A DNA stretch of 64,000 nucleotides from an uncultured Methylococcales bacterium (lineage in GTDB: Bacteria > Pseudomonadota > Gammaproteobacteria > Methylococcales > Methylomonadaceae): positions 1,736 to 65,735 of the forward strand of contig CAIUVX010000113.1 in assembly GCA_903902705.1 (NCBI GenBank), in the 5' to 3' direction. The notes beneath the pieces are model-generated. The model saw nothing but the letters and a program-made list of their open reading frames with translations. It did not search any database and was not told where the DNA came from. The position numbers and the translations under genes are program-made. Shown in pieces: positions 19,697 through 48,960 of this stretch. The first letter of the stretch is position 1, and every line of letters begins with the position of its first letter.

Positions 19697-19749
19697 TTTT
19701 ATTCACGCATGGTTTTTCGCCGTGCCACTCACTGCAAATTCTTATACTT

Positions 19750-20391
19750 ATGTCTTCTGTTGCTGTCATTGATTACGGAATGGGCAATCTCCATTCCATT
19801 GCCAAAGCCTTACAACACGCCGCCCCCGAAGTGGATGTGTTAGTCACGGCTAATGAAAATGAAATTTTAAACGCGGATCGCGTGGTTTTCCCAGGTGTGG
19901 GTGCAATGCGCGATTGTATGCAGGCATTACAACAATCAGGTTTGGACGCTGTGATTAAACAAGTTGCCAACACTAAACCATTGTTAGGTATTTGCTTGGG
20001 AATGCAGGCGTTACTTACTGACAGTGCGGAAAATGGGCATACCGATGGACTGAATATTTTCCAAGGTCATGTGGTACATTTTCCAGAACCGTTGCGTGAT
20101 GCCCAAGGCGAGATATTAAAAGTGCCGCACATGGGCTGGAATCAAGTGGCGCAACGTCCGCATCCATTGTGGGAAAACATTCCACAAAACAGCCGCTTTT
20201 ATTTTGTGCATAGCTATTATGCCCAGCCTGATGATGCGTCTGTAATTGCGGCAACTACCGATTATCCCGATGCCTTCGCCTGTGCTTTGGCGCGAAACAC
20301 TATTTTTGCCGTACAATTTCACCCTGAAAAAAGTCAGGCAGTTGGCTTACAACTGTTAAAAAACTTTTTACACTGGAATGGTCAAGTTTAA
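19750..20391 (+). CDS. hisH: Imidazole glycerol phosphate synthase, glutamine amidotransferase subunit
   Basis: 213 aa. [17 protein letters not shown] and FHPEKS motifs. Confidence 0.95.
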
Positions 20392-20396
20392 TCAAC

Positions 20397-20430
20397 ATGA
20401 CTGCTAGTCCTTCAAAGGACTGGCAGTCAT
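20397..20430. repeat. Palindromic element ATGACTGCTAGTCCTTCAAAGGACTGGCAGTCAT, a slightly degenerate copy of the 36-bp palindrome family, between hisH and hisA
   Basis: Same sequence family as 37086..37119 and 55235..55270. The ORF-track N-terminal extension of hisA ([12 protein letters not shown]) is just its translation. Confidence 0.8.
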
Positions 20431-20447
20431 TAACTATTGAGGTTTTT

Positions 20448-21182
20448 ATGCTGTTAATTCCCGCTATTGATTTAAAAGATGGAAAATGTGTGCGCCTACG
20501 TCAAGGACGCATGGAAGATGACACGGTATTTTCTGATAATCCTGTTGAAGTTGCAGGTCGTTGGGTTGCCTTAGGTGCAAGACGCATACATTTAGTTGAT
20601 TTAGATGGCGCGTTTGCAGGTAAACCCAGAAATGCCGACGTAATTCACGCGATTGTCGAAGCCTATCCCGATGTTCCTGTGCAAATCGGCGGCGGTATTC
20701 GTGATGAAGATACCATTCAAGCCTATCTCAATGCAGGCGTGGAATACGTCATCATCGGCACTAAAGCCGTCAACGAACCGCATTTTGTTCGTGATATGGC
20801 AATCGAATACCCGCGCCGCATTATCGTCGGCTTGGATGCCAAAGACGGCAAAGTCGCGATTGACGGCTGGTCAAAACTGTCCAAACATGACGTAATCGAT
20901 TTAGCGCAACACTTTGAATCCGATGGCGTAGAAGCCATTATTTACACCGACATTTCCAGAGATGGCATGATGCAAGGTGTCAACGTCGAAGCCACAGCCC
21001 GCTTAGCCCGTGCTATTAACATCCCCGTGATTGCCTCAGGCGGCATCACCAACATGGACGATATACACGCCTTAGGTAAAGTCGCCCACGAAGGCATTAT
21101 GGGCGCGATTACAGGTCGAGCAATTTATGAAGGGTCATTGGATTTTGCCGAAGCGGAGAGGATTGCTGAGACTTACGCATGA
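20448..21182 (+). CDS. hisA: ProFAR isomerase HisA
   Basis: [17 protein letters not shown] start with TGAGG upstream; GGGIR and SGGI motifs. The start at 20448 is preferred over 20397. Confidence 0.93.
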
Positions 21183-21640
21183 AAAGCTCAGAAGAAATAA
21201 AGCAACTTGCTTACGAGCGATTAAGCGAAGCGGAAATACTTTGTGAGAATGAAAAGTATGATGGCGCGTTTTATTTAGCAGGTTACAGTATTGAATTGAT
21301 GCTGAAAGCTAAAGTGTGCGAACATTTTGATATTGATAATTTGTTTGATGAGACGTGTCAAATTTATGGCGTTGGCGAAGTCAGAAAAGCGTTAAAAACG
21401 CACGACATTGGTGTATTGTTAGTGTTTAGTGGTTTATTCATCAAACTTGAAAACGCAAAAAGTACCGATAAAGTGTTAATGCAGACTTATGCTCGCCTGT
21501 TTGCAACATCGGGGCGTTGTTTATGGAATGAGCAGGTACGTTATCAAGTACTTGGTAGTCAGAATGCTGAAAACGTTCAGGCATTGATAACGTTGTTACA
21601 ACATGAAGCAGGAGTATTGCAATGGATAGAAAAGAATTAG
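21179..21640 (+). CDS. HEPN domain-containing protein (predicted RNase-type toxin or effector)
   Basis: 153 aa. HEPN-like N-terminal helix pair ([27 protein letters not shown]) and an intact Rx4-6H motif R69-KALKT-H75 followed by D (codons at 21383..21403). Its ATG overlaps the hisA TGA (ATGA). Confidence 0.7.
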
Positions 21641-21936
21641 CCATTAAATTGGAAGATTTCAAAAAAACGTGTCAAAACAAAGGCTACATCATTGGAGAAC
21701 TTTATTTTGATGAAGCCATTCCAGGCATGATTCCAAGTTCTTTCATTGTCAAAATGATGGTTAAAAAATCATGGATGGACACAATGAGTAGCACGGGCAA
21801 AGCTTTAGACGCACTTATTGATGTACTTTGGGATACCACCGAAGCCAAAACCCGCACAAGTGTCCATGTGTTAAGTATTTATAATGAAGATGAGCGTGAT
21901 TTGCTTGAACAACCGCTACACCGTGAAGTCGCCTAA
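21622..21936 (+). CDS. Hypothetical 104-aa protein, paralog of the N-terminal half of the next gene
   Basis: Overlaps the HEPN gene by 19 nt. Shares MD.KEL...L..F.....Y.I.E...D.A.P.....F..K..V.K.W...S and H.L.IY with 21966..22523. No MNT (GS..DxD) motif visible. Confidence 0.6.
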   Translation: MDRKELAIKLEDFKKTCQNKGYIIGELYFDEAIPGMIPSSFIVKMMVKKSWMDTMSSTGKALDALIDVLWDTTEAKTRTSVHVLSIYNEDERDLLEQPLHREVA

Positions 21937-21965
21937 ATTTTAAATATTTAGTAAGGATTATTGCG

Positions 21966-22523
21966 ATGGATATAAAAGAATTAATAGCTGAATTAAAATA
22001 CTTTATTGAAGGCTATAAAAGTGAGAGCTACCTAATAAATGAACCATGTATTGATGTGGCTTATCCGTTTAGTGTTGATGCTTTTGTTATTAAAATAACA
22101 GTGGAAAAAGAATGGACAGAATCTGTTAGTAATTGGGAGCGTTTATTGATGAATATTCTTAAAAAGACGACCACAGTTAAAACTTATAAAAACATTCACT
22201 TATTAGTTATTTATATTTTTGGCACAACAAAAAAACGTGCTTTAATTAATCCATCTTTAACCTATGAACAAATTAAAAATTTATGTTTTAGTAAAAAGTA
22301 TTATATTCGTCAATTAACTGAAGAGTGTGTAAAGCACGGCAACTTAAGTAACAGACAAATAAAGCAAATATGTCGTATTTTAGATGACGGATATTCTGTA
22401 GATTCTTGTGATAAGGGAATAATTATATTATTAATGGAGAGATACTGGACAAATTACGATTTCAGATGCTTTATAAATAAAAATGGTTTTAAAAAACTAC
22501 GCCTGCTATCTAATAACCTTTAG
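21966..22523 (+). CDS. Hypothetical 185-aa protein: N-terminal domain paralogous to the 104-aa protein plus a unique C-terminal extension of about 95 aa
   Basis: Long ORF in a visibly very AT-rich stretch. N-terminal similarity to the preceding ORF seen by eye. No family recognised. Confidence 0.55.
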   Translation: MDIKELIAELKYFIEGYKSESYLINEPCIDVAYPFSVDAFVIKITVEKEWTESVSNWERLLMNILKKTTTVKTYKNIHLLVIYIFGTTKKRALINPSLTYEQIKNLCFSKKYYIRQLTEECVKHGNLSNRQIKQICRILDDGYSVDSCDKGIIILLMERYWTNYDFRCFINKNGFKKLRLLSNNL

Positions 22524-22552
22524 AATTCAATTAACTAAATAAAAATAAATAC

Positions 22553-23326
22553 ATGAGCCTAGCCAAACGTATTATTCCCTGCCTTGATGTTGATAACGGT
22601 CGCGTTGTAAAAGGCGTGCAGTTTGTTGATATTCGTGATGCAGGAGACCCTGTGGAAATCGCCCGCCGTTATGACCGTGAAGGCGCGGATGAAATCACCT
22701 TTTTAGACATCACTGCTACCCATCATGAACGCAACACAATGGTTCATGTGGTGGAACAAGTTGCCAGTGAAGTGTTTATACCGCTCACGGTGGGCGGCGG
22801 TATTCGTACCTTAGACGACATACGCACCATGTTAAACGCAGGTGCGGATAAGGTTGGCATTAACAGCGCGGCAATCTTTAGACCTGAATTTGTCAGAGAA
22901 GCCGCCGAACGTTTTGGCTCGCAATGTATCGTGGTTGCCATTGATGCCAAAAAAGTCAGTGCGGACGGTGAACCCAATCGCTGGGAGATTTTCACCCACG
23001 GCGGACGCAAACCCACAGGCATAGACGCAGTCGAATGGGCGGTGAAAATGGTTGAATTTGGCGCGGGTGAAATTCTATTAACCAGCATGGACAAAGACGG
23101 CACGAAAAGCGGCTTTAACTTACCCTTAACCCGCGCTGTCAGTGAAGCGGTCTCTGTGCCTGTGATTGCATCGGGTGGCGTAGGTAACTTAGACCATTTA
23201 GCCGAAGGCATACTCGAAGGCAAAGCCGATGCGGTATTAGCCGCCAGTATTTTTCATTTTGGTGAATATACCATTGAACAAGCCAAGCGACATTTGCGTT
23301 CACGCGGTATTGAAGTGAGATTATAA
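22553..23326 (+). CDS. hisF: Imidazole glycerol phosphate synthase, cyclase subunit
   Basis: 257 aa. [18 protein letters not shown] and ASGG motifs. Confidence 0.96.
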
Positions 23327-23328
23327 TC

Positions 23329-23597
23329 ATGCCCACTATTTCTATGTTTTACGGCATTATTATTGTGTGTACTTCATGGATAATAAACAACACAAACTGC
23401 CACATATCCATGTTAAATATCAGGATGATGAAGTTATTGTTGCTATTCCAGAGGGTGATATTTTGGAAGGCAGTATTCCAAAAGCCAAAATGAAATTATT
23501 ACAAGCATGGATTGAAATACATAAGGATGAGTTAATGGCAGATTGGCAACTCGCTGTTTCTGGTGAACTGCCTTATAAAATTGAACCGTTACGTTAA
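23329..23597 (+). pseudogene. DUF4160 domain protein with an apparent frameshift at a GTGTGT run
   Basis: The ATG at 23329 encodes MPTISMFYGIII, the characteristic DUF4160 N-terminus. The rest of the domain (YFMDNKQHKLPHIHVKYQDDE...) continues in another frame from 23367. The frames meet at GTGTGT (23365..23370). Confidence 0.65.
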
Positions 23598-23601
23598 TAT
23601 C

Positions 23602-23871
23602 ATGAATCCCCGTGTTAAAACCGTTAAACCAACGGATGATTATCAATTAATACTGGAATTTACTAATGGTGAATGCGGTATTTATGATTGTAAACCATTA
23701 TTAGATTTTGGTGTATTTAGGGAATTACAAGACATTAACTATTTTAAACAAGTTACTATTATTGATGGCACGGTAACGTGGGTAAATGAACAAGATATTT
23801 GTCCTGATACGCTTTATTTGGATTCTGTGATGATTGATAATGAAATAGCCACAATAGATAGACTGATGTAA
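23602..23871 (+). CDS. DUF2442 domain-containing protein
   Basis: MNPRVKTVKPTDDYQLILEFTNGE...D...L pattern typical of DUF2442. It directly follows DUF4160, as in the common two-gene arrangement. Confidence 0.7.
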   Translation: MNPRVKTVKPTDDYQLILEFTNGECGIYDCKPLLDFGVFRELQDINYFKQVTIIDGTVTWVNEQDICPDTLYLDSVMIDNEIATIDRLM

Positions 23872-23881
23872 AGAAGCCTAT

Positions 23882-23921
23882 CGTTCGCGATTGATGGGCT
23901 TCGTACCTCAGCCCATCCTAT
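23882..23921 (-). repeat. Copy of the repeat ATAGGATGGGCTGAGGYACGAAGCCCAT...TCGCG in inverted orientation relative to 25809..25844
   Basis: The reverse complement of 23882..23921 aligns with 25809..25844 with 3-4 mismatches. Contains an internal GGGCT/AGCCC hairpin. Confidence 0.7.
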
Positions 23922-23971
23922 GCACTATGCACTCGACCTACCGACTAAAAATAAATAGTTAGATAACAATT

Positions 23972-24385
23972 ATGAATGAAATAATTACAAATCTTGTCTT
24001 TAGTATCCCACCAGGTATTGTCAGTGGACTCTATGCTGGGATTGTGGTTGCTAGATACCAACGGTTTGCTGACCTACGTTTGCAAGCAAAAAAACTTATC
24101 CTTGAAATCGAATTCATCAATCATGGCAACAAAATAATTTTTCCCAAAAGAAAAGGCATTCCTGAATTTGATATTATCGTATCGGATTTGCTATTTCTAA
24201 GACACAAGAAGGCGGCAGAGACTATTCTTCAACTTTCTGTAGATATAAGAAGTGCTATTACTAGGGCGGAAGCGGGACAAATCGATATTAATTCATTCAA
24301 TAACGATTATCTATCATGGCAAGTATCGATTCGTAGTATTTCACCAAGCCCTCTCCAAGTGCTTCGGTTATGGGGTGGGCTTTAA
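23972..24385 (+). CDS. Hypothetical protein with an N-terminal transmembrane helix
   Basis: 137 aa; LVFSIPPGIVSGLYAGIVVA hydrophobic segment. No family recognised. Confidence 0.5.
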   Translation: MNEIITNLVFSIPPGIVSGLYAGIVVARYQRFADLRLQAKKLILEIEFINHGNKIIFPKRKGIPEFDIIVSDLLFLRHKKAAETILQLSVDIRSAITRAEAGQIDINSFNNDYLSWQVSIRSISPSPLQVLRLWGGL

Positions 24386-24525
24386 TTCTCCTTGTAACAC
24401 AGTCGAAGACGATCTTGCATCTTCATGATGTATTAAAAGACGCTGGAGCGTCAACTAACGCATTCCAACGCAGAGCGTTGGAACGATTTATTGTAAAGTT
24501 AGCAAATAACGGAGCTTTTATAAAA

Positions 24526-25005
24526 ATGAAAAATAATTTTTTATTCATGGTTTTTATTTTCACCTCTAGTTTTATTAACCCTGTTTCTGTTAATGCAGAG
24601 GGTATTGTTACTATAGCTACACTGACTGGAAAATGTACTAAAGTAGAGGCAATGGGTGTATTGGCAGATCCTAAGTTATGTTCAAACAAATTAATAAACA
24701 ATATACATCCGAATGGTCGTAGTGCATTCACATTTATGCTCAAGGATGATGTACTTATTTATTTTTCAGGGGATGGTTCAAAGCAAATTCATACAGATGA
24801 GGATAATGCAACACAACCCATTGATCGGGTTTCTTTTACTTTTGATGGTAGCACTGATGAACTCAAAGCTATTGGTTTTTGTGTATTTTCAAATCCATAT
24901 AAACATAAACCTGCAAAAGTAATATGCTCTGCCGATACCAGTCAAGGTACATTTTCTGGAGAATTTATCAGTAATGGCGTTAGTCCTGATATTAACGAAA
25001 TATAA
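24526..25005 (+). CDS. Hypothetical secreted protein
   Basis: The start at MKNNFLFMVFIFTSSFINPVSVNA gives a clean signal peptide. The upstream part of the listed ORF (24370..) is translation of dispersed repeats. Confidence 0.5.
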   Translation: MKNNFLFMVFIFTSSFINPVSVNAEGIVTIATLTGKCTKVEAMGVLADPKLCSNKLINNIHPNGRSAFTFMLKDDVLIYFSGDGSKQIHTDEDNATQPIDRVSFTFDGSTDELKAIGFCVFSNPYKHKPAKVICSADTSQGTFSGEFISNGVSPDINEI

Positions 25006-25086
25006 TCGAACCTGTAAGCCTTGTAGGGTACGCCGTGCGTACCTTTAAATCTACGCAAAAATACAGGGAAGTTAATGGCATAAAAA

Positions 25087-25207
25087 AGCCGTGAAGTTGT
25101 TGGCTTCACGGCTTGATGTGTTGGGTTTCGCTATCGCTCTACCCAACCTACAGGCTACGGGCTGAATTGGTATAATCGGTGGGCAAGCAAAAAGACGCTT
25201 GCCCACC
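25087..25207. repeat. Cluster of three structured repeats: hairpin AGCCGTGAAG/CTTCACGGCT (25087..25113), a GTTGGGT...ACCCAACCTAC element (25118..25164), and hairpin GGTGGGCAAGC/GCTTGCCCACC (25178..25207)
   Basis: Stems read directly from the sequence. The second element recurs at 25690..25748. Confidence 0.7.
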
Positions 25208-25246
25208 CTACCTGACTTTACCAAATTTTATTAGGAATTTTAAAAC

Positions 25247-25648
25247 ATGAAAGAGTTTGGTGTTATCACGTTGCTTTTTAGCTTATTTGCTTCTAGTTAT
25301 GCTTATGGTTATGAAACGACCCTTGATCGGGAACAAGAAGAGCGGGAAAAAGATCGAATGTATGGATATATTACTGAACTTGATAACAGACTTATTTCTT
25401 ACAAGAGTTATCATGAAAAAATGCAGTTTTTATCAAAAACAGAGACATATTTAGATAATAATGAAAGTAATTATTCTATATCAGATTTTTACGCTAGAAA
25501 AAACGTAATAATCATTGAAAAATGTGCTTTAGGAGTGAGTTTAAAAATCGATAAAAATAAAGCCATGAAACTATGCAGTTCTGCGTTTTTTGAAGATAAA
25601 AAAAAGGACGCTAAAAAAAAGGACGCTTGGGGCGTTCCTGTTGAGTGA
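25247..25648 (+). CDS. Hypothetical secreted protein
   Basis: 133 aa; signal peptide-like MKEFGVITLLFSLFASSYA; lysine-rich tail. No family recognised. Confidence 0.5.
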   Translation: MKEFGVITLLFSLFASSYAYGYETTLDREQEEREKDRMYGYITELDNRLISYKSYHEKMQFLSKTETYLDNNESNYSISDFYARKNVIIIEKCALGVSLKIDKNKAMKLCSSAFFEDKKKDAKKKDAWGVPVE

Positions 25649-25689
25649 TTTTTATTAAGCCATGTAGGATGGAAAAACAAAAAATGCTT

Positions 25690-25748
25690 GCCAGCTCGTA
25701 GGTTGGGTTTCGTTATCACTCTACCCAACCTACGAGCTACGGGCTGGC
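25690..25748. repeat. Long hairpin element GCCAGCTCGTAGGTTGGGT...ACCCAACCTACGAGCT(ACGG)GCTGGC
   Basis: Arms of about 19 nt read from the sequence. Same family as 25118..25164 and related to 48843..48875 and 48915..48947. Confidence 0.7.
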
Positions 25749-25808
25749 ATGAATCATTAATCGTTACAACGCTCCGCGTTGTAACGCAACCGAAGACGCT
25801 CTAGCACG

Positions 25809-25844
25809 ATAGGATGGGCTGAGGCACGAAGCCCATTATTCGCG
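25809..25844 (+). repeat. Repeat ATAGGATGGGCTGAGGCACGAAGCCCATTATTCGCG, inverted partner of 23882..23921
   Basis: See 23882..23921. It is preceded by a TCGTTACAACGCTCCGCGTTGTAACG hairpin (25761..25786). Confidence 0.7.
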
Positions 25845-25914
25845 TTGCAACAATGCAAATCTTATCGCGTTATTTTTACAAAAAAACCGTTAAATCTATC
25901 GAGTAAGAATATTA

Positions 25915-26157
25915 ATGCCATTTGAAGTTATTAGCGAAATTAACGAAATAGAAACATTTACTGTCGGTTCTAAAATTCGAGAATTGAATAGATTGCAAGA
26001 GACTTATGGCAAAGGACGTTGGCGGAAATGCAAAGGAACTGCCATTATTAAACTAACGGATAATTCATTATTTTTAGCTGAATTACATTGGTATGAAGCA
26101 AAAGGAATTGGCAAAAAAGAACTGAAAATTAAATCGTTGTTGGAGGAAATACAATGA
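25915..26157 (+). CDS. Conserved hypothetical 80-aa protein, first gene of an overlapping pair
   Basis: GKGRWRKCKGTAIIKL....AELHWYEAKGIGKKELKIK motif. I recall it from unannotated small proteins in other bacteria but cannot name a family. Confidence 0.55.
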   Translation: MPFEVISEINEIETFTVGSKIRELNRLQETYGKGRWRKCKGTAIIKLTDNSLFLAELHWYEAKGIGKKELKIKSLLEEIQ

Positions 26158-26390
26158 TAGCGTCTGATATAAAAACAGATGGTTTTGTGGTTTGCATAGA
26201 TAATAAAGAATATCCTGCTTCTTTGGAACAGTTTAAAATTTATCGTGTGCTTGTAGATGAAACTGCCGCTCAACATAATTTTATCCGCGTCATTGATGAA
26301 TCGGGCGAAGATTATTTATATCCTGCTGATTATTTCATGCCGATTACGCTCACTGAACAAATTGCCCTAGCGATTTTACAAGCCGCTTAA
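26154..26390 (+). CDS. Conserved hypothetical 78-aa protein, second gene of the overlapping pair
   Basis: ATGA overlap with the previous gene. YPASLE..KIY.....E.AA.....RVIDESGEDYLYPADYF motif. No named family recognised. Confidence 0.55.
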   Translation: MIASDIKTDGFVVCIDNKEYPASLEQFKIYRVLVDETAAQHNFIRVIDESGEDYLYPADYFMPITLTEQIALAILQAA

Positions 26391-26436
26391 AATTTATGAA
26401 CGATACACAAACCGATATTAAGAGAATACATAAAAC

Positions 26437-26832
26437 ATGAATTGGTTAAATGAAATTCGCTGGACAGAAGAGGGCTTAATCCCTGTGATTGCCCAGCAAC
26501 ACGACAGCGGCAAAGTGGTGATGTTTGCGTGGATGAATCGTGAATCCTTGGCTTTAACGGTGCAGGAAGGTTATGCGGTGTATTGGTCACGCTCACGCGG
26601 TCGGTTATGGCGTAAGGGCGAAGAATCAGGGCATAGACAAAAAGTCATCGGCTTATTTATGGATTGTGATGAAGATGTGCTGTTGCTGCACATTGAACAA
26701 GAAGGCGGTATTGCCTGTCATACGGGACGTGAAAGCTGTTTTTATCGGCAGTTGGTTGATGGGCAATGGCAAGCAGTTGAGCCTGTGTTAAAAAATCCAG
26801 CCGAGATTTATGCAACACACGATGTAATTTGA
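26437..26832 (+). CDS. hisI: Phosphoribosyl-AMP cyclohydrolase (monofunctional, no HisE domain)
   Basis: 131 aa. [30 protein letters not shown] and CHTG..SCF motifs. Confidence 0.93.
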
Positions 26833-26980: not shown

Positions 26981-27490
26981 TTATCGATCTAATAATCCCA
27001 ATAATCCTTTCATTAATGCTAATGGTGTCGGCGGACAACCACTGATAGTCATATCAACAGGAATCACGTTAGACACCGCGCCACAGCACGCATAAGACTG
27101 ACCAAATTCACCGCCACAGACAGCGCAATCACCGACAGCGACTACCCATTTTGGATTAGGGGTGGCTTCATAAGTGCGTAACAGCGCAGTTTGCATGTGG
27201 CGTGATACTGGACCTGTGACTAATAACACATCGGCATGACGGGGCGAGGCGACGAAGTGAATACCAAAACGTTCAATGTCATAAAATGGATTATTGATAG
27301 CGTGAATTTCTAATTCACAGCCGTTACACGAACCCGCATCCACTTGACGAATGGCGATACTGCCCGAAAACTTTTTATCAATGCGGCGTTTAATTTCAAT
27401 CCCTAAAGTTTCCAGTTCCGCATCTTTAGGTGCTTTACATTTTTCGGTGACAATTCCCGTGGTGACTATTTTTTTCAGTAGTTTTAACAT
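26981..27490 (-). CDS. NuoB/HycG/HyfI-like small subunit of a group-4-hydrogenase-like membrane complex
   Basis: 169 aa. Retains the four cysteines of the proximal [4Fe-4S] site (GSCNGCE, GDCA, GCPP). Confidence 0.85.
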   Translation of the reverse strand: MLKLLKKIVTTGIVTEKCKAPKDAELETLGIEIKRRIDKKFSGSIAIRQVDAGSCNGCELEIHAINNPFYDIERFGIHFVASPRHADVLLVTGPVSRHMQTALLRTYEATPNPKWVVAVGDCAVCGGEFGQSYACCGAVSNVIPVDMTISGCPPTPLALMKGLLGLLDR

Positions 27491-27499
27491 GGTCGTTTC

Positions 27500-29110
27500 C
27501 TATAAATCATTGCCCGAATACGAGCCATTCAGGGATTTGTTACACACGGGAAAATCAGGAACTATATTATTAAGTGCCAGTTTTTCTAATGCAGGCCAGT
27601 TTAAAATACTGGGATCACGCGGATAAAAACGGGCGATTTTATTATCTGCTGCAAAACGTATGTATGAAATAATTTCACCGCGAAAACCATCAACGATTCC
27701 CAAGCCTTCGCTATCTATTGCAGGGGTTTTCCACGTCGTTGTGATTTCACCTTCTGGCAACAATTGAATAAAGCGTTCGATAAGTTTTAATGAGGCATTA
27801 ATTTCTTTATGCCTTACCCAAAACCGTGACGCAATATCGCCTTGGTCTTCAAGTGCGACTTTAAAGCTGACTTGATCGTAAGGCGCGTAAGCTGCGTCAC
27901 GGCGTACATCAAAATCTTGTCCGCTGGCACGTCCCACATAACCGACTGTACCAAATGCTGCCGCTATCTCAGGCGATAAATAACCCGCTGTATATAATCT
28001 GTCTTCTAAAGAGGAGTTAAGGTCTACGGCAAGCATGATTTCTGCTAGTTCTTCTCTGATTTGAATAATGTCTTTTTTGAGCAATTCACAAGACAGTTGC
28101 GATACATCACAACTCACACCCGCAGGAATAACAACATCCATCAACAACCGATGCCCAAACACACTGGCATTGGTACGCAACCACAACTCGCGCAAACGGG
28201 TGAACTGCATTTGCGCAAAAGTAAACGCCACGTCATTACAAATCGCGCCCATATCACCGAGATGATTAGCGATACGTTCACGTTCTGCCACGATGCCGCG
28301 TATCAAATTGGCGCGTGCGGGTACGACAATGTCAGCCGCTTGTTCCATTGCCTGACACGCTGCCCAACAATGCCCCACTGTGCTGTCACCTGAAACCCGT
28401 CCTGCTAAACGTGCTAAGGATTCTGGCGTTCTACCCTCGGCAATTTTTTCGATACCTTTATGCACATAACCTAAGCGTTCTTCAAGATTCAAAATCAACT
28501 CTCCCACCGCTAGAAAACGAAAATGGCCTGGTTCAATAATGCCCGCATGAACGGGCCCGACGGGGATTTCATACACACCTGCACCGTGACCTTTGATAAA
28601 GTCATAGTGCATATCGGGCGGTGTAATATCGGCGGGTGAGCCTTGTGCTGGAAAATCTTTGCGCAAGGGGTATTGGTGTTTGTCCCACGCCTGATGACGT
28701 GTCCAGCGGCGATTATCAGGATGTCCGATAAATTTTATACCGAACATATCTTGGGTGTGGCGTTCACTACGATTTGCCGCTGGATAAACCGTGGCTTGCG
28801 TAGGCAGTTCGAGTTTTGTACCATTAATTAGGGTACGCAATACGATATAAACGCCGTGTTTTTCAAAACAGGCGTTAACCATAAACTGTTCATTCGCTTG
28901 TTCTGCCCAACCTGCCACCCAGCGCAATTTTTCTGCAACCGCAGTGATAGCGAAATGTTGCCAATGTTTATCTGCAATTTGCCATACAGCGACGTTATTT
29001 AGGGGCGAATGGTGGACAATACCTCCGATATAATCACCAATCGGTTTGTCTGGCATTTCTGGATCTATCCAGCCAACGTGTTGAGTTAAAAATGTGGTTG
29101 TCCAGTTCAT
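27500..29110 (-). CDS. Fused NuoC-NuoD / HycE-HyfG-like large subunit that appears to lack the NiFe cysteine ligands (Ehr/MBX-like)
   Basis: 536 aa. GPVHAGIIEPGHFRF and RLGYVHKGIEK motifs. RVSGDS (28382..28399) sits where hydrogenases have R.CG.C. The C-terminus DFPVCNKSLNGSYSGNDL (SYSG at 27512..27523) sits where they have DPC..C. Confidence 0.8.
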   Translation of the reverse strand: MNWTTTFLTQHVGWIDPEMPDKPIGDYIGGIVHHSPLNNVAVWQIADKHWQHFAITAVAEKLRWVAGWAEQANEQFMVNACFEKHGVYIVLRTLINGTKLELPTQATVYPAANRSERHTQDMFGIKFIGHPDNRRWTRHQAWDKHQYPLRKDFPAQGSPADITPPDMHYDFIKGHGAGVYEIPVGPVHAGIIEPGHFRFLAVGELILNLEERLGYVHKGIEKIAEGRTPESLARLAGRVSGDSTVGHCWAACQAMEQAADIVVPARANLIRGIVAERERIANHLGDMGAICNDVAFTFAQMQFTRLRELWLRTNASVFGHRLLMDVVIPAGVSCDVSQLSCELLKKDIIQIREELAEIMLAVDLNSSLEDRLYTAGYLSPEIAAAFGTVGYVGRASGQDFDVRRDAAYAPYDQVSFKVALEDQGDIASRFWVRHKEINASLKLIERFIQLLPEGEITTTWKTPAIDSEGLGIVDGFRGEIISYIRFAADNKIARFYPRDPSILNWPALEKLALNNIVPDFPVCNKSLNGSYSGNDL

Positions 29111-30570
29111 AACGGACTACTCCCTGAAATTAAAAAGGTCGCTTGTGAAAACCAATGCGCCAAAAAGCCTGGAATGGCTAAACCTAGCCATAACACTAAG
29201 GCTAAATGAATTATCACAGGTAATAAGTTGGCTTTAACAGGCTGTTGACCTTCGGGTTTTTCACCGTACACCATGGGTTGTATGTGACGAAATAAGCCCG
29301 CAAAAGCAATACCGATACCGAGTAATAACGGCAAAGTCAGCCACGGATAACTGTGCATAGTCGCCAGTAATACTAAAAATTCACTGGTGAATACGCCAAA
29401 CGGAGGGAAGCCTGCAATAGAAATCGTGCCAATTAATAAGCCCCAGCCGATTTTGGGTTGGGTTTTAATCAGTCCGCGTATTTTGTCCATGCGTTGTGTG
29501 CCTGCGACTTGGGTAGCATGACCGACGGTGACAAAAATTGCCGATTTGGTGAGTGAATGGACAGTCATGTGTAGCAAAGCGGCAAAAGTAGCCAACGCGC
29601 CACCGACACCAAACGCAAAAGTCATTAAACCCATGTGTTCAATAGAGGAGTAACTGAACAAGCGTTTAATGTCTTTTTGTCTGTGTAAAAATAACGCACC
29701 GACTAAAAATGACAACAAACCAAAGCCCATCATTAAATGTCCCGCCATATCGGAATGGGTCGCGCCATCGACTAACATTTTGTTACGCACTACTGCGTAT
29801 AAAGCATCATTCAATAACAAGCCTGATAAAACCGCCGACATTGGTGTTGGTCCTTCGGAATGCGCATCGGGTAGCCAGTTGTGCAACGGTACTAAACCAA
29901 TTTTCGTACCGTAACCAATCAGCATAAATACAAAGGCAATTTGCAATACTTCGGGATTTAATTGACTGGCGTGTTGAAACAGTTCTGACCACAACAGCGC
30001 GTTTTCGCCGTCACCAATTTGCACCGCCGCGTAATACAATAAAATTGTGCCGAACAGAGCTTGAGCAATACCGACACCACACAGTATGAAATATTTCCAC
30101 GCGGCTTCGATAGATTCAGGGGTGCGGTATAAACTCACCAACAAGACCGTTGCCAGTGTTGCCGCTTCCATACCAACCCACATCACGCCCATGTTATTGG
30201 TGGTCAATACCAAATACATCGCCAACATGAAGCCTTGATACATTGAGTAGTACAGCTTCAAGCGTTTATCAGTGAGTTTGCCCAGTTCTTTTTCATGCGC
30301 CATGTAGGGATTGGAAAAGATAGATGTGGTCAAGCCAACAAACGCGGTCAAGACAATCAAGTAGACATTAAATGAATCAATCAAAAACGCTTTATCAGCC
30401 GATAAAATCGTACCGTTATTAAGTACGTTAATGGCTAACCATATCGTGGCAAATAAACTAACACTATTAAACCAAACATTTATTTTTCCTATTTCGGCTT
30501 TATGTCCTGATAAGGCAAAAAACACGATGCCAACAAAGGCAATGGATAACAACAAATAGACGGGGATCAT
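29107..30570 (-). CDS. HyfF/NuoM/NuoN-like proton-conducting antiporter-type membrane subunit
   Basis: 487 aa polytopic membrane protein. WLPDAH..GPTP.SA.LSG motif of the Mrp/NuoLMN family. 4-nt overlaps with both neighbours. Confidence 0.85.
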   Translation of the reverse strand: MIPVYLLLSIAFVGIVFFALSGHKAEIGKINVWFNSVSLFATIWLAINVLNNGTILSADKAFLIDSFNVYLIVLTAFVGLTTSIFSNPYMAHEKELGKLTDKRLKLYYSMYQGFMLAMYLVLTTNNMGVMWVGMEAATLATVLLVSLYRTPESIEAAWKYFILCGVGIAQALFGTILLYYAAVQIGDGENALLWSELFQHASQLNPEVLQIAFVFMLIGYGTKIGLVPLHNWLPDAHSEGPTPMSAVLSGLLLNDALYAVVRNKMLVDGATHSDMAGHLMMGFGLLSFLVGALFLHRQKDIKRLFSYSSIEHMGLMTFAFGVGGALATFAALLHMTVHSLTKSAIFVTVGHATQVAGTQRMDKIRGLIKTQPKIGWGLLIGTISIAGFPPFGVFTSEFLVLLATMHSYPWLTLPLLLGIGIAFAGLFRHIQPMVYGEKPEGQQPVKANLLPVIIHLALVLWLGLAIPGFLAHWFSQATFLISGSSPL

Positions 30571-31244
30571 TTGTCCACCTCATTTAATTTATTCATTAAA
30601 TCCACATCCAAAGAATCAATGCTAGAGCGAATATGAAAGAAGAAAATACCGAACAATACGGCGGCGACTAATACGTCAAAGGCAATACCCAGTTCGACCA
30701 CCATCGGCATTCCTTTCGTGGCAACAATGGCGGCAAAAAATAAGCCGTTTTCGATGGACATAAAACCGACAACGTGAGCAATGGCTTGTTTATGAGAAAT
30801 CATTAATAGCATTCCTAATAACACCACCGACAAACTCACCGCCAAGGCGTTCAGCATCACGGGTGAAGTGGTTTGGACGATAGGATGTAAAACGTAATAA
30901 CTAAACACCATTAAACTTGCACCGCCTAACATAATGGCGGTTTGATTACCTAAGGCTTCCACATCACGGTGCAGGTTGGATTTTAAGACTTCGTTGCGTA
31001 GCATCCACGGAATAAAAATCACTTTTAGCGCGAGCGTTAATACCGCTGAAATGTATAAATGATGATTGTCTAAACTGTACGCGGCGACAGCCGTGGTCAG
31101 TGTCAATAACAAACCCTGTATCGCAAATACAAAAATCAAGCGTAATAAACGACCTTGCCCTAACATCAAAAAAGAGGTTAATCCCACTAATGCCGCCATT
31201 GATAAAATGATTTGCGTATACAAATCTTGCGATTCAATATTCAT
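30567..31244 (-). CDS. HyfE-like small membrane subunit
   Basis: 225 aa from the ATG at 31244 (MNIESQDLYTQIIL...), which forms an ATGA overlap with the upstream gene. The 302-aa version in the ORF track runs through the preceding gene. Confidence 0.75.
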   Translation of the reverse strand: MNIESQDLYTQIILSMAALVGLTSFLMLGQGRLLRLIFVFAIQGLLLTLTTAVAAYSLDNHHLYISAVLTLALKVIFIPWMLRNEVLKSNLHRDVEALGNQTAIMLGGASLMVFSYYVLHPIVQTTSPVMLNALAVSLSVVLLGMLLMISHKQAIAHVVGFMSIENGLFFAAIVATKGMPMVVELGIAFDVLVAAVLFGIFFFHIRSSIDSLDVDLMNKLNEVDK

Positions 31245-32185
31245 CGTGAAGCCTCCAAAATGATGTGACTCAACATACCCAGCAAGCCCAGTAAATAAGC
31301 AAAACCTAGGTACTCTTGCACTCTGAATAAGCGCATTTTTGCAACTAGCGTTTCTGCGATGCCCAAAATAATGGATAACACCATCAGTTTGCCGATAATT
31401 GCCAGTAGCCCATAGCCCAAATCGTGTAGCGAGAAGGTTTGCGCTATACCCCACGGAAAAAAGATATTGGCACACAACACCCCATAGAGCATTAATTTAA
31501 GCTGACTAGCCCATTCAATTAACGCTAAATGCCGTCCGCTGTATTCCAGAATCATAGCTTCATGAATCATAGTCAGCTCTAAATGGGTGGTCGGATTATC
31601 CACAGGAATACGCCCTGTTTCTGCCACTGCCACCAAAATTAACGCGAATAAAGCGAATACAAACGAGGGACGTAATACCAGCCCCTGTTCTAATACATGG
31701 CTAATTGCCAACGATAAATTAGTGGTTGAAGCGGTCATGGTTAACGTAAAAATAGCCATTAACATCGCGGGTTCGGCTAACGAGGAAATAGTCATTTCTC
31801 TCGATGAACCCATGCCACCAAATGCTGTACCCACATCGAGTCCTGCTAATGCCAGAAAAAACCGTGCAAACGCAAAAAAACCCACCATCACAATCACATC
31901 CGCGCTTGCAGAGGTGGGTAGATCAACAGCGATCAACGGAACGACTGTGGCGGCCAATACGGTCGCCGAAAAAATAATATAGGGTGCTTTTATGAATAAC
32001 CACGAAGCTTGTTCAGAAACAACAGGCTGTTTATTGGTTAATTTTAGTAAATCCCGATACGGCTGTAACAGCGATGGAGGTTGTCGGTTTTGTAGATAAC
32101 ATTTACAGACTTTTAACCAACCTGCCAATAAGGGGGCTAAAGCAACAAACAAGGTAGTTTGTAATATAGCGATTAACCAGTTCAT
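31241..32185 (-). CDS. HyfC/HycD/NuoH-like membrane subunit
   Basis: 314 aa, polytopic. GR.PVDNP..H.ELTM.HE motif characteristic of HycD/NuoH. Confidence 0.85.
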   Translation of the reverse strand: MNWLIAILQTTLFVALAPLLAGWLKVCKCYLQNRQPPSLLQPYRDLLKLTNKQPVVSEQASWLFIKAPYIIFSATVLAATVVPLIAVDLPTSASADVIVMVGFFAFARFFLALAGLDVGTAFGGMGSSREMTISSLAEPAMLMAIFTLTMTASTTNLSLAISHVLEQGLVLRPSFVFALFALILVAVAETGRIPVDNPTTHLELTMIHEAMILEYSGRHLALIEWASQLKLMLYGVLCANIFFPWGIAQTFSLHDLGYGLLAIIGKLMVLSIILGIAETLVAKMRLFRVQEYLGFAYLLGLLGMLSHIILEASR

Positions 32186-32222
32186 GCTATTTCTCCAGTA
32201 GGCGCGAATTCATTCGCATTTT

Positions 32223-32251
32223 CTCGTTCCCACGCGCTGCGTGGGAACGAG
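32223..32251. repeat. Hairpin repeat CTCGTTCCCACGCGCTGCGTGGGAACGAG, inside the hyf-like operon between the HyfB-like and HyfC-like genes
   Basis: 11-12-bp stem read from the sequence. It belongs to the TCGTTCC(C/A)ACGC...GCGT(G/T)GGAACGA family seen at about 10 loci in the window. Confidence 0.8.
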
Positions 32252-32290
32252 TGAATGACAGGCAGTCCTTTATACTTAGTAATCTATTCA

Positions 32291-34396
32291 TCAGCTAATC
32301 ACCCACAACAACACCAACAAAGTGACAAACGAGTAGCCTAAATAAGTTCGGATATTGCCCGTTTGAATGCGCCCAACCTGTTTGGATAAGTTATTTACGC
32401 CACGCTCTAAAGGTTGATAGACCCACGGCCAACTATGATCTTGAATATGTAAGGCATAATGCACCGCAGCCACATCTTGATCCATAGCACCCTGCATGTC
32501 TTTATTGACTTGTTCATCAATAATCCATGCTTTGGCAAAAATGCGCCGAAACGGCATAGTGAAGGCACTAGAGGTGTACTGCATACGCGGCGTTAAACCG
32601 CCAAAGCCACAATCCCACGTTTCTCCAATACGAATGGCTTTATCTGGGTCACGGCGTAAATACCAATAACACACGCAACCCGCTATCAACGCGCCGATTA
32701 ACACCAACGGTGGTGAATAAGACGCTTGTTCAGGGGCAACAGGAGCAAGCCATAGCCAACTTAATCCGTTGTTATTCGCCAAAGTTTGATTCAATAACTG
32801 CCCTGTCACGCGATTAATTAAGCGAATAATTACACTGGGAAAAATACCGACTAAAAAGCACATTCCCGCTAATAAAGTCGTTGCCGCTATCATGCCTTTA
32901 TCTTTCACTTCATGAGCTTTTTCACTATGACGTGAACGAGGTACACCCAAAAACGTTAACCCAAACACTTTGACAAAACACGCTGCGGCTAAGGCGGCGG
33001 TTAATGCCAATGCAGCCGCAGACACAGGAATCAAACTGCGTAACACGCCGTTATCCAAGACATCCACTTGCAATGCGGTTTGAAACGCCAACCATTCAGA
33101 GACAAAACCGTTAAACAACGGCAAAGAAGAAATACTCATACAGCCGACTAAAAACACCATGCTGGTTTGCGGCATTTTTTTAATTAAACCGCCCAACATA
33201 TCGATGTTCAGTTCGTGGGTTTGCTGGTGAATCATACCTGCACCCAAAAACAACAAGTTCTTGAATAATGCGTGGTTGAAAGCATGAAACAACGCAGCTA
33301 AAAACCCCAATGCGGCTAATTCTGGGTGTCCGTTATCGAGAAAAATCATAGCCAAACCCAGCACCATAAAAATAATGCCAATGTTTTCGACTGAACTATA
33401 CGCCAACAAACGTTTTAAATTCGGCTGCATCATGGCGTATAAAATTCCGCCTAAGGCTGAGATTGTACCGATGACTAGTAACACCACGCCCCATTGCCAC
33501 TGAATTTTATCCAGCAAATCAAAGCTAAAACGTATTAAGCCATATATGGCAACTTTCAACATCACGCCACTCATCAGCGCGGAAATATGCGACGGTGCGA
33601 CAGGATGAGCTTCAGGCAACCAGACATGAATCGGCACTATACCTGCTTTCATGCCAAAGCCTAACACCGCTAAACCAAAGGCGATACTTGCCCAAGTAGT
33701 TGATAACTGCGCGTGCCGCAAGGCATCAAAGGTAAAGCCATCCGAAAAACTTGCCAACACGCCAAAGGCTAAAATAATGGCTAACGCGCCGACTTCTGCC
33801 ATCAATAAATATAAGAATGCCGCTCTACGATTAGCAGAGTTTTCATGTTGAAACGCTACCAAAAAGTAACTGGCAACTGACATTAATTCCCACGCAATCA
33901 TAAACACAAAAGCATCATCAGCGAGTAACACCAACAACATTCCTGTGACAAATAAGCCTGTAAACAAACCCAGTACCGCAAAGGGATGGTCTTTTTCTTT
34001 GTAATGATGCACATAACCTGGCCCGTATAAACTAACCGCGCCGACGGCAATGCCGATGATTAAAAAGAAAAATCCCGACAATGCGTCAAAACGAATATGC
34101 CAAGGCAACCACGGCAAACCTAAACCGATTTGGTCAGTCACTACCGTGTTGCTTATTAGCACGCTTAAGCCCGCTAATACCGCAAATCCGCCTGACAATC
34201 CCAATGCTATAAATACCACTTGCCGTAAAAAATTAGGATAGTGATGTTCTTCCAAACAATGATCTATAAATGCAGAAGGGGTTTTTAAAAACCTGTGTTG
34301 CAGTGCTAACAGGAACTGCTGTTGATTACTTAGCAAGGCTAACAAACCAGAAGTAAAACTGAATAGCACAGCACAATAAGCTAATAATAGAATCAT
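32291..34396 (-). CDS. HyfB/NuoL/MrpA-like antiporter-type membrane subunit
   Basis: 701 aa polytopic protein. WLPEAHP.APS..SALMSG and LLAYSS.EN.G motifs. Confidence 0.85.
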   Translation of the reverse strand: MILLLAYCAVLFSFTSGLLALLSNQQQFLLALQHRFLKTPSAFIDHCLEEHHYPNFLRQVVFIALGLSGGFAVLAGLSVLISNTVVTDQIGLGLPWLPWHIRFDALSGFFFLIIGIAVGAVSLYGPGYVHHYKEKDHPFAVLGLFTGLFVTGMLLVLLADDAFVFMIAWELMSVASYFLVAFQHENSANRRAAFLYLLMAEVGALAIILAFGVLASFSDGFTFDALRHAQLSTTWASIAFGLAVLGFGMKAGIVPIHVWLPEAHPVAPSHISALMSGVMLKVAIYGLIRFSFDLLDKIQWQWGVVLLVIGTISALGGILYAMMQPNLKRLLAYSSVENIGIIFMVLGLAMIFLDNGHPELAALGFLAALFHAFNHALFKNLLFLGAGMIHQQTHELNIDMLGGLIKKMPQTSMVFLVGCMSISSLPLFNGFVSEWLAFQTALQVDVLDNGVLRSLIPVSAAALALTAALAAACFVKVFGLTFLGVPRSRHSEKAHEVKDKGMIAATTLLAGMCFLVGIFPSVIIRLINRVTGQLLNQTLANNNGLSWLWLAPVAPEQASYSPPLVLIGALIAGCVCYWYLRRDPDKAIRIGETWDCGFGGLTPRMQYTSSAFTMPFRRIFAKAWIIDEQVNKDMQGAMDQDVAAVHYALHIQDHSWPWVYQPLERGVNNLSKQVGRIQTGNIRTYLGYSFVTLLVLLWVIS

Positions 34397-34431: not shown

Positions 34432-34460
34432 TCGTTCCCACGCTCTGGCGTGGAAACGAG
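34432..34460. repeat. Hairpin repeat TCGTTCCCACGCTCTGGCGTGGAAACGA between the SulP gene and the HyfB-like gene
   Basis: Same family as 32223..32251. Confidence 0.8.
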
Positions 34461-34466
34461 GAAAAA

Positions 34467-36125
34467 CTAGGCAGTTTGCTTCACGCGCCGTGCCGCCAAA
34501 TGGTGATCTGAAAAAGGCTCGTGATATTCCAAGCCTGAAAACTCACAAACTCCACCTGTGGCTTCATAGTTATGTTGAAAATCATGAAAAAATCCCATGA
34601 CAGAATGGTCTAACAAATAGGCATCATTGAGTTGGAATACGATGGTTTTACCTTTTTCTAAACCTGCCACCGCTTCTTTTAATGCCATTAAATTAGAAAA
34701 CACTGCCGCGCCATCAATATTCACATAAATGACACCAGCATTTTTTTCATTGATTTCAAAGTGCATTTTAAACAGATTGTTGAAAGTAACGCCGTGCATT
34801 AAATGAATAACCAATTCAACCACAATACCGATAGCCACACCCACCAATAAATCGGTAGCAATCACACCGATTGCTGTTACCACAAAAATAAAAAGCTGTT
34901 CTTTACCAATGTGTAAAACGTGAATAAATTCTTTAGGTGCTGCTAAACGAAAGCCTGTAAAAACCAATAATGAAGCCAACGCCGCCAATGGAATACTGTG
35001 TATTAACTGCGGAAATAACACCACGAACAATAACAATAACGCACCATGAAAAAAGTTAGCCCAACTGGTTTTTGCACCATTATTGACATTAGCCGAACTC
35101 CGCACGATTTCCGCAATCATTGGTAAGCCGCCTACACAACCTGCCACTAAATTACCGACACCTACCGCTGTTAAGTCTTTATTCAAATTAGAATGACGTT
35201 TATAAGGGTCTAATTTATCCACTGCCATTGCACTTAATAAACTTTCCAAACTGCCGACTAAACTAATCGCCACCACTGCTTCCCAAAATTCCAGAGTGGC
35301 AAATTTAGAAAAATCAGGAAAGTAAAAGCTAGACATAAAGTTGTCAGCAATAACCACCAAAAACTTTGGACCCACTTCTAACGAATCAGTGTGAGAGTGT
35401 GTGTAATTACCATCGGGTAGCAATAAGTAAATATGTTGGTGTTCCAACTGAAAATAATGCCCCAAACCTATACCAAGTAAGACCACAATCAACGGCGCAG
35501 GAATCATTTTTAACGGGTGCTTATCTTCTATTAGTGACCAAATGATGAGAATAGCGAGTCCTGCAAAACCAATAACCGCTATTTCCAGATTCAAATTAGC
35601 AAAACTTTCTGGAATTTGCGCAATGGTAGAAAACAAACTGCCTTTATCGGGTGTAACACCGAGCATTACATGAATTTGTTTCGCCATGATGATAATGCCG
35701 ATAGCGGCCAACATACCATGCACTACCGAGGTAGGGAAAAATGAACTCAAGCGTCCTGCTTTTAAAACACCCATTAAGATTTGTATCACACTGGCAATAA
35801 CAATCGCAGCCAAGGTGTAACGATAGCCTGCCATTGCATCGCCTTCGCCCAAACCCTGCACGGCATCGTAGACCACGACGATTAAACCCGCCGCAGGACC
35901 ATTAATGGTAATAAATGAACCGCTGATACGCGACACTAACACGCCACCGATAATCGCGGTGATAATACCCGCCGAAGGTGGAAATCCCGAAGCCATTGAA
36001 ATGCCTAAGCACAATGGCAAGGCAATTAAAAATACTAAAAAACCTGACAGCAAATCGCTACGCCAGTTTTCTTTTAAACCTGCTAAACCCGTTTTGGGTA
36101 ACGCTGAAAGAGAAGAGTCACTCAT
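34467..36125 (-). CDS. SulP family inorganic anion transporter with a C-terminal STAS domain
   Basis: 552 aa. N-terminal DLLSG..V....LP..L..A..SG.PP..G motif, many TM segments, and a soluble C-terminal STAS-like domain. Confidence 0.88.
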   Translation of the reverse strand: MSDSSLSALPKTGLAGLKENWRSDLLSGFLVFLIALPLCLGISMASGFPPSAGIITAIIGGVLVSRISGSFITINGPAAGLIVVVYDAVQGLGEGDAMAGYRYTLAAIVIASVIQILMGVLKAGRLSSFFPTSVVHGMLAAIGIIIMAKQIHVMLGVTPDKGSLFSTIAQIPESFANLNLEIAVIGFAGLAILIIWSLIEDKHPLKMIPAPLIVVLLGIGLGHYFQLEHQHIYLLLPDGNYTHSHTDSLEVGPKFLVVIADNFMSSFYFPDFSKFATLEFWEAVVAISLVGSLESLLSAMAVDKLDPYKRHSNLNKDLTAVGVGNLVAGCVGGLPMIAEIVRSSANVNNGAKTSWANFFHGALLLLFVVLFPQLIHSIPLAALASLLVFTGFRLAAPKEFIHVLHIGKEQLFIFVVTAIGVIATDLLVGVAIGIVVELVIHLMHGVTFNNLFKMHFEINEKNAGVIYVNIDGAAVFSNLMALKEAVAGLEKGKTIVFQLNDAYLLDHSVMGFFHDFQHNYEATGGVCEFSGLEYHEPFSDHHLAARRVKQTA

Positions 36126-36262
36126 AATACATTCCCATTTTGAAAAAATTATTTATTTACCTTTAAAAAGCAAAAATTATGCCAAATATTTTAAAAGCTA
36201 TAACATACTGAATAAATGACTATTTTTTGTATAGAAGAAAGCCCTATTAAAATTTAAGGAGC

Positions 36263-48947: not shown

Positions 48948-48960
48948 AAGGCTTTGTGTG

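Follow-up and report, generated by a model that had tools for sequence, protein, structure and literature searches.

A six-gene Ehr complex without NiFe ligands, encoded next to a SulP transporter gene in a Methylococcales methanotroph

Introduction

The name Ehr, for energy-converting hydrogenase-related, reportedly dates from 2005, and about twenty years after this naming the complexes that bear it have no assigned function. Here we analyse an Ehr locus on contig CAIUVX010000113.1 of an uncultured Methylococcales bacterium (assembly GCA_903902705.1), within a stretch of 64,000 nucleotides that we call the window, and its link with a gene for a SulP-family anion transporter. According to PMC7894505, which cites Coppi, Ehr (the first part of the name being also given as 'Ech-') was first described in Geobacter sulfurreducens, with the subunits EhrA, EhrC, EhrL and EhrS. 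Published accounts define Ehr as lacking the catalytic cysteines (Cys-less) and as having no known function (PMC4378227, PMC10284858, PMC7735108, PMC6349859, PMC7894505). Sulfobacillus carries six syntenic Ehr genes of unknown function without binding-site motifs (PMC4378227); the Ehr of comammox Nitrospira lies phylogenetically near group 4f and misses the typical CxxC motifs (PMC10284858); and the hyfBCEFGI cluster of Acidithiobacillus ferrooxidans is a non-hydrogenase by HydDB (PMC7735108). Ehr also occurs in Margulisbacteria (PMC6349859), and 'EHR' appears in the legend of a model drawn for metagenome-assembled genomes (MAGs) of peat methanotrophs (PMC6155033).

Results

The locus is a complete six-gene Ehr module

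Scans of the open reading frames (ORFs) against Pfam and NCBIfam confirmed the six-gene, HyfBCEFGI-like content given in a preliminary description of the window (Table 1). The NCBIfam models for the HyfB-like and HyfF-like subunits both score above their cut-offs, and EhrL combines Complex1_30kDa, a NiFeSe_Hases N-terminus and Complex1_49kDa, the make-up of a NuoC+NuoD-type fusion. The 4-nt overlaps reported from the HyfC-like to the HyfG-like gene hold provided that the HyfE-like gene starts at ATG 31244: the alignment to NF008556, the hydrogenase 4 membrane subunit, begins at residue 87 of a longer GTG ORF, and translation from the ATG yields a protein starting MNIESQD. Given this start, the overlaps are 31241-31244 (HyfC/HyfE), 30567-30570 (HyfE/HyfF) and 29107-29110 (HyfF/HyfG). 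EhrB is 79-95% identical among Methylococcales loci. Outside that order, the six genes (NuoL-like, NuoH-like, HyfE-like, NuoM/N-like, large and small subunit) recur in the same order and with the same sizes in five unrelated genomic contexts, a comparison that leaves out the representatives P0121 and P0130, whose contigs are too short.

Table 1. Features discussed in the text; positions are those of the window
Feature	Position	Strand	Basis or detail
Ehr cluster, six genes	26981..34396	minus	ORFs in the order HyfB-, HyfC-, HyfE-, HyfF-, HyfG-, HyfI-like
EhrA / HyfB-like antiporter-type subunit, NuoL/MrpA-like, 701 aa	32291..34396	minus	NF005086, hydrogenase 4 subunit B, 816 bits
EhrB / HyfC-like subunit, NuoH-like, 314 aa	31241..32185	minus	Pfam NADHdh, E 1e-35
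EhrC / HyfE-like membrane subunit, 225 aa from ATG 31244	30567..31244	minus	NF008556, E 8e-22
EhrD / HyfF-like antiporter-type subunit, NuoM/N-like, 487 aa	29107..30570	minus	NF005045, hydrogenase 4 subunit F, 771 bits
EhrL / HyfG-HycE-like large subunit, 536 aa, without NiFe ligands	27500..29110	minus	Alignments, structure match
EhrS / HyfI-NuoB-like small subunit, 169 aa, one [4Fe-4S] site	26981..27490	minus	Oxidored_q6, E 2e-32
SulP/SLC26-family anion transporter, 552 aa, at the head of the probable operon	34467..36125	minus	Pfam Sulfate_transp, E 1e-63
Sigma-54-type -24/-12 promoter-like element TGGCATAATTTTTGCT	36169..36184	minus	ends 44 nt before the SulP start codon
Palindrome, 12-bp hairpin, in the SulP-hyfB spacer	34434..34457		RNA fold
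[NiFe]-hydrogenase maturation cluster	47758-53932	minus	hypF 51665-53932, hypC 50514-50750, hypD 49436-50524, hypE 47758-48795

EhrL has lost all four NiFe ligands

To locate the ligand positions, EhrL was aligned with E. coli HycE (PDB 7z0s_E) by HMMER and with HycE, HyfG and NuoCD by MAFFT. In the HMMER search against PDB sequences HycE matched at E 1e-61 and 213 bits. Both programs place RVS240GDS243TVGH of EhrL under RVC241GIC244GFAH of HycE at the first ligand motif (L1), and NGS530YSG533ND under DPC531YSC534TD at the second (L2). HycE Cys241, Cys244, Cys531 and Cys534 are replaced by Ser240, Ser243, Ser530 and Gly533, as had been read by eye in the preliminary description for the N-terminal and the C-terminal pair alike, and no cysteine pair falls at either position. 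Where group 4 [NiFe]-hydrogenases carry RxCGxCxxxH and DPCxxCxxH/R, EhrL reads RVSGDSTVGH and NGSYSGNDL. The protein ends in GNDL with Leu536 as its last residue, at the place where HycE is cleaved and one residue short of where the HycE core motif (DPCYSCTDR) stops. Unlike E. coli Hyf/Hyc, it has neither the NiFe cysteines nor a C-terminal extension for a maturation protease. With all four ligand cysteines replaced, the complex cannot be a conventional [NiFe]-hydrogenase, as had been stated; because it has no NiFe site, it is predicted neither to make nor to consume H2.

A confident AlphaFold model of EhrL (pLDDT 90.3) gave HycE 7z0s_E as its best Foldseek match (TM 0.90), followed by E. coli NuoCD (TM ~0.85). 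In the MAFFT alignment Gly241 of EhrL occupies the position of the quinone-headgroup tyrosine in the RIEY motif of E. coli NuoCD; a complex I-like quinone site was rejected on this ground, and the quinone-linked role proposed earlier finds no support. In most loci EhrL is the least conserved subunit (67-78% identity versus 80-90% for most membrane subunits), and it retains nearly all of the charged residues common to true hydrogenases. Two positions set the window protein apart: residue 330 is Ala where 95% of family members have Gly, and residue 474 is Asp where 99% of both Ehr proteins and true hydrogenases have Glu, Asp474 being common to just 12 of 116 matched close Methylococcales homologues.

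The Fe-S site and the ion-translocation residues are intact

The small subunit, as previously described, keeps all four cysteines of its [4Fe-4S] cluster: Cys55, Cys58, Cys122 and Cys152 of EhrS align with the residues that bind the cluster in HycG, HyfI and NuoB, and the three Cys motifs are retained in 63 of 64 Methylococcales orthologues. EhrS therefore has the proximal [4Fe-4S] cluster of a group 4 hydrogenase small subunit, a site likewise found in other Ehr complexes. Its CxxC is of the hydrogenase type, whereas complex I has a tandem CC, and unlike HycG/HyfI it lacks the C-terminal tail of ~80 residues. In two loci outside the Methylococcales, L090 (Desulfosporosinus acidiphilus, Bacillota) and L091, EhrS is 244-266 aa long, its NuoB-like domain being preceded in the same chain by a 2x[4Fe-4S] ferredoxin domain. 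This fusion argues for electron transfer in the Ehr family and hints that its members may exchange electrons with a soluble partner.

Both antiporter-type subunits carry the canonical ion-translocation residues, that is the TM5 Glu, TM7 Lys, TM8 His/His/Lys and TM12 Glu: Glu170, Lys250, His371, His375, Lys379 and Glu434 in EhrA, and Glu135, Lys223, His334, His338, Lys342 and Glu397 in EhrD. The pattern is residue for residue that of E. coli HyfB/HyfF.

The Cys-less signature is conserved across phyla and under selection

We next asked how far the altered ligand motifs extend. Among the closest 120 database homologues of EhrL (72-88% identity), all 120 end in NGSYSG(N/S)DL, which shows that the ligand loss is neither chance nor a sequencing artefact. 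A wider search, of 1.8 billion representatives of 50%-identity clusters, gave 101 full-length matches that could be aligned; 21 have all four ligand cysteines, 74 have none and 80 have at most one over the four positions. Most of the 74 Cys-less representatives read R-x-S-G-D-x at L1 and N-x-S-Y-(S/A)-G-x-D-L at the extreme C-terminus. When 59 Cys-less members (30-50% identical to the query) were aligned, Gly533 was invariant and Asp242 and Ser530 were at least 90% conserved. A profile search with the Cys-less alignment finds Nitrospirota, Desulfosporosinus, other Bacillota and Desulfuromonadaceae, and the same C-terminus is present in 119/119 of its matches from Nitrospirota, Bacillota and Desulfuromonadaceae. 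In a neighbour-joining tree of 105 sequences, which has no support values and is indicative only, the window EhrL falls inside a large Cys-less clade whose neighbour is a four-Cys clade and which is separate from E. coli HycE/HyfG.

All genes are under strong purifying selection. Nei-Gojobori dN/dS values of the window genes against five orthologous loci were 0.06-0.12 for EhrL and 0.00-0.12 for the other six genes including SulP (SulP itself, 0.02-0.11), and the ORFs of the module are intact in 80 loci. Pseudogenisation was rejected since no value for the seven genes exceeds 0.12. Judged by its sequences, EhrL belongs to a selected, intact, non-hydrogenase protein family.

Comparison with related complexes

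By gene content and ligand signature the locus is a typical Ehr module, its EhrA-B-C-D-L-S being HyfB-C-E-F-G-I-like, and the Ehr class named in the preliminary description stands: the locus has the same six-gene module without NuoI/HycF, the same group 4-homologous large subunit without the four cysteines, and a place among Cys-less sequences in the tree. As here, the large subunits of the Ehr complexes of G. sulfurreducens (GSU0739-0745), A. ferrooxidans, Nitrospira and Sulfobacillus have no L1/L2 CxxC.

E. coli Hyf/Hyc (7z0s) is the best match of EhrL in both sequence and structure, and the NCBIfam models passed by EhrA and EhrD are those of HyfB and HyfF. However, HyfA, HyfD, HyfH and HyfJ of E. 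coli Hyf are missing from the window cluster, as is a formate dehydrogenase partner. With complex I the window complex shares the NuoC-NuoD fusion fold, the NuoB-like cluster site and the NuoH-like and antiporter-like subunits, but it is without NuoEFG or NuoI. The MBS/MBX complexes of Pyrococcus furiosus (6u8y) are, like Ehr, hydrogenase-derived respiratory complexes with an incomplete NiFe site. MBS is built from many more subunits, an Mrp module among them, and its host is archaeal, in contrast to the six genes and the bacterial methanotroph here. The suggestion of an MBX/MBS-type relative is not supported, since EhrL matches MbsL (6u8y_L) at 62 bits versus 213 for HycE and the cluster has no Mrp-type extras.

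A SulP gene and a sigma-54-type element precede the module

Directly upstream of hyfB lies a SulP gene, and the two abut in 51 of the 60 Methylococcales loci with enough upstream sequence to be counted. Gaps of ~2 kb ahead of hyfB in some loci correspond to a second SulP paralogue. Two tandem paralogues of ~530-545 aa each stand ahead of hyfB in ~18 loci among L007-L060, of the Methylobacter/Crenothrix type; the window has one. SulP is found in none of the five non-Methylococcales Ehr loci examined, so the link is lineage-specific and SulP was rejected as a general Ehr partner; unlike the Ehr of these five lineages, the window and most Methylococcales have a SulP gene and a sigma-54-type element ahead of the module. 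Literature searches covering SulP returned no report joining it with Ehr, and the association of SulP and sigma-54 with Ehr appears not to have been described before. The nearest solved structures to the transporter are BicA 6ki1 (E 3e-24) and SLC26Dg 5da0. Its scores against the NCBIfam models DauA, sulP and BicA all fall short of the cut-offs (BicA: E 3e-38, 131.5 bits, cut-off 880; DauA scores higher), and we therefore rejected the BicA, DauA and TIGR sulP equivalog labels and treat it as a generic SulP.

The element TGGCATAATTTTTGCT upstream of SulP has one mismatch to TGGCAC-N5-TTGCW, and sites of this quality number just 6 on both strands of the window. Of 50 related Methylococcales loci, 23 have an equivalent element whose start lies 55-71 nt 5' of the first SulP gene, where ~1 is expected by chance. 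We infer that TGGCATAATTTTTGCT functions as a sigma-54 promoter element. The 70-nt SulP-hyfB spacer folds at -25.8 kcal/mol (z -5.2). No intrinsic terminator was predicted in this spacer, and its hairpin has no U-tract and so is not an intrinsic terminator. SulP adjacency, the 70-nt spacer without a terminator and the sigma-54 element at a conserved position together suggest a seven-gene SulP-Ehr operon, sigma-54-type like the hyf operon of E. coli. The hairpin was rejected as a conserved regulatory RNA since the corresponding spacer varies from one relative to the next and contains other, unrelated palindromes or short tandem repeats. Palindromes of the type GTTCCCACGC-N4-GCGTGGAAAC occur in two copies, at 34434-34457 and 45984-46007, and given this second copy elsewhere in the window the spacer copy is probably a dispersed element like the repetitive extragenic palindromic (REP) sequences.

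In related loci an NtrC-type sigma-54 activator (19 loci) and a HAMP/HisKA histidine kinase (18 loci) are encoded nearby, usually 3' of hyfI, as in L003, L004, L006, L035, L053 and L063. In 36 related loci a signal-peptide-bearing protein of ~236 aa, probably an outer-membrane beta-barrel by prediction, lies 3' of hyfI; in the window this position is occupied by the convergent hisI.

Host and genomic surroundings

The locus proteins are 98% identical to those of a Methylococcales lake MAG, and the best 80 genome matches are all Methylococcales or unclassified MAGs, the named ones including Crenothrix, Methylobacter, Methylovulum, Methylomonas and Methyloglobulus. On these matches the host is a Methylococcales methanotroph and not the putative sulfur bacterium it had been taken for. 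As an aerobic methanotroph it differs from the hosts of the Geobacter, Acidithiobacillus, Nitrospira and Sulfobacillus Ehr complexes.

The genes that flank the locus are housekeeping genes (his genes, RNase G, YhdP). The hypF-hypC-hypD-hypE cluster lies ~20 kb from the Ehr genes and is not contiguous with them; its presence implies that true [NiFe]-hydrogenases are encoded elsewhere in this genome. A Cys-less subunit such as EhrL could not be matured by the product of this cluster. The hyp genes are explainable by the other hydrogenases of Methylobacter-type genomes (PMC12810054). A survey of 97 Methylobacter genomes reports hydrogenase groups 1d, 1e, 2c and 3d only, with no mention of the Ehr cluster.

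Two further features of the window are recorded here. Its histidine operon (hisB, hisH, hisA, hisF ... hisI; 19103-26832, plus strand) is interrupted, by two ORFs without a family match between hisA and hisF (21179-22523) and by ~3 kb of small ORFs between hisF and hisI (23563-26276), of which 24370-25005, the only one scanned, likewise matches no family. An SbcC (1246 aa)/SbcD (408 aa) nuclease pair at 10615-15581, minus strand, is ordinary and unrelated to Ehr.

Discussion

Taken as a whole, we consider it likely that the window encodes an Ehr complex of a Methylococcales methanotroph that works without NiFe, links redox chemistry to the movement of H+ or Na+, and is co-transcribed with SulP from a sigma-54 promoter. 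Such a complex would be functional: electron transfer at the EhrS cluster and the EhrL/EhrS/EhrB interface would be coupled, in either direction, to H+ or Na+ movement via EhrA and EhrD, and the peripheral arm would still carry out, or sense, electron transfer. In Methylomonadaceae-type methanotrophs Ehr would be transcribed together with the upstream SulP from a sigma-54-dependent promoter. The ion gradient that it makes or uses would probably be tied to SulP-mediated transport of an anion, with bicarbonate, formate or another carboxylate, and sulfate as candidates; it is the co-expression with an anion carrier under sigma-54 that makes a link between gradient and transport probable.

Several observations weigh against this explanation. 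In the window's cluster, Pfam and NCBIfam detect neither a ferredoxin subunit of the NuoI/HycF type nor a gene for a dehydrogenase. The SulP linkage is missing from ~8 of the 60 Methylococcales loci, and none of the five outgroup loci shows it. These SulP-free loci imply that Ehr can function without SulP; adjacency of the two alone is no proof of coupling. The sigma-54 consensus is matched with at most one mismatch in just about half of the relatives. Finally, one four-Cys sequence nests within the Cys-less clade of the neighbour-joining tree, which carries no support values.

A more specific form of the explanation would have Ehr recruited in Methylomonadaceae-type methanotrophs to energise SulP, the seven genes forming a sigma-54-controlled 'primary-pump plus carrier' that imports or exports an anion, for example bicarbonate or formate. 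We offer this tentatively and consider it rather unlikely as it stands.

Narrowing the anion to inorganic carbon makes for an improbable account, in which SulP would be BicA-like and Ehr would serve either as a gradient source or as an engine of vectorial CO2 hydration like NDH-1MS/CupA and DabAB. CO2 uptake by NDH-1MS and DAB makes renewed use of antiporter modules of the complex I type, and the cyanobacterial bicarbonate transporter BicA is both the nearest SulP structure and a significant NCBIfam match. That match, however, lies far under its cut-off and behind DauA, and the modest demand for dissolved inorganic carbon of methanotrophs of the ribulose monophosphate (RuMP) type also speaks against such a system. 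In Acidithiobacillus caldus, hyfBCEFG clusters adjoin beta-carbonic anhydrase or carbon-fixation genes (PMC3826726). Here, by contrast, a tblastn search of the window and 88 related loci with E. coli Can found no Can-type beta-carbonic anhydrase within 10 kb, the operon has no carbonic anhydrase-like subunit, and carbon-related genes adjoin none of the five outgroup Ehr loci.

Could the complex do without redox chemistry? As a secondary, Mrp-like cation/proton antiporter, it would use EhrL and EhrS as a structural or regulatory cap with no redox turnover. The intact antiporter residues, the lack of an electron-input module in the cluster and the position of EhrL as the least conserved subunit are all in keeping with this. 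We nevertheless hold it to be improbable, since the four EhrS cysteines are strictly retained, ferredoxin domains are fused to EhrS in the two non-Methylococcales loci, and EhrL is still strongly constrained, with the low omega values given above and nearly all of the charged residues of true hydrogenases in place.

Formate offers another way to join the two halves of the operon. Ehr might be the membrane arm of a formate-linked system that resembles formate hydrogenlyase (FHL) without forming H2, and SulP might move the formate. The model is E. coli, where the sigma-54-dependent hyf operon ends with the formate channel gene focB and has its own sigma-54 activator, HyfR; the window too has a sigma-54 element upstream. 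Ehr subunits are more abundant in formate-grown Geobacter (PMC7894505), a complex of formate dehydrogenase with Ehr has been hypothesised for Margulisbacteria (PMC6349859), and the methanotroph MAG model tags EHR as 'part of formate hydrogenlyase complex' (PMC6155033). Yet no formate dehydrogenase and no HycB/HycF-type connector is present in the cluster or among the recurring neighbour families of 80 related loci, there is no known electron acceptor without the NiFe site, and the idea that this SulP carries formate is wholly conjectural. We judge this account to be quite improbable.

The two remaining possibilities are essentially excluded: an MBX/MBS-type sulfane-sulfur reductase, which belongs to the same superfamily and shares the incomplete NiFe site, is opposed by the distance to MbsL, by six genes as against a 13-gene Mrp-containing cluster and by an aerobic methanotroph as host, which leaves the sulfur-linked role proposed earlier without support, and a decaying remnant, a view that fits the lost catalytic ligands and that one paper takes of the Geobacter Ehr as already non-functional (PMC13194489), is opposed by the low dN/dS of all genes, the ORFs intact in 80 loci and a replacement motif conserved across phyla.

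Ehr is already a named and known class, and the locus is a further example of it, not a new kind of system. The class is widespread, in Nitrospira, Acidithiobacillus, Geobacter, Nitrospirota, Bacillota and most of the Methylococcales genomes sampled here. Genome pipelines annotate EhrL homologues as 'hydrogenase' or 'NADH-quinone oxidoreductase subunit C', and labels of this kind can inflate the H2 metabolism inferred for methanotrophs. What is added here is the strong selection on the module, its intact ion-translocation and Fe-S residues, and the tie to SulP and sigma-54 in methanotrophs. Several carriers are in culture (among them Methylobacter tundripaludum SV96, M. luteus, M. marinus A45, Methylomonas lenta and Methyloglobulus morosus), which makes the function directly testable, and Methylovulum miyakonense provides a natural comparison without SulP. 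The association with SulP and sigma-54 is thus a practical handle on Ehr function in culturable Methylobacter, and if Ehr does energise SulP, this would be the first physiological role for any Ehr complex.

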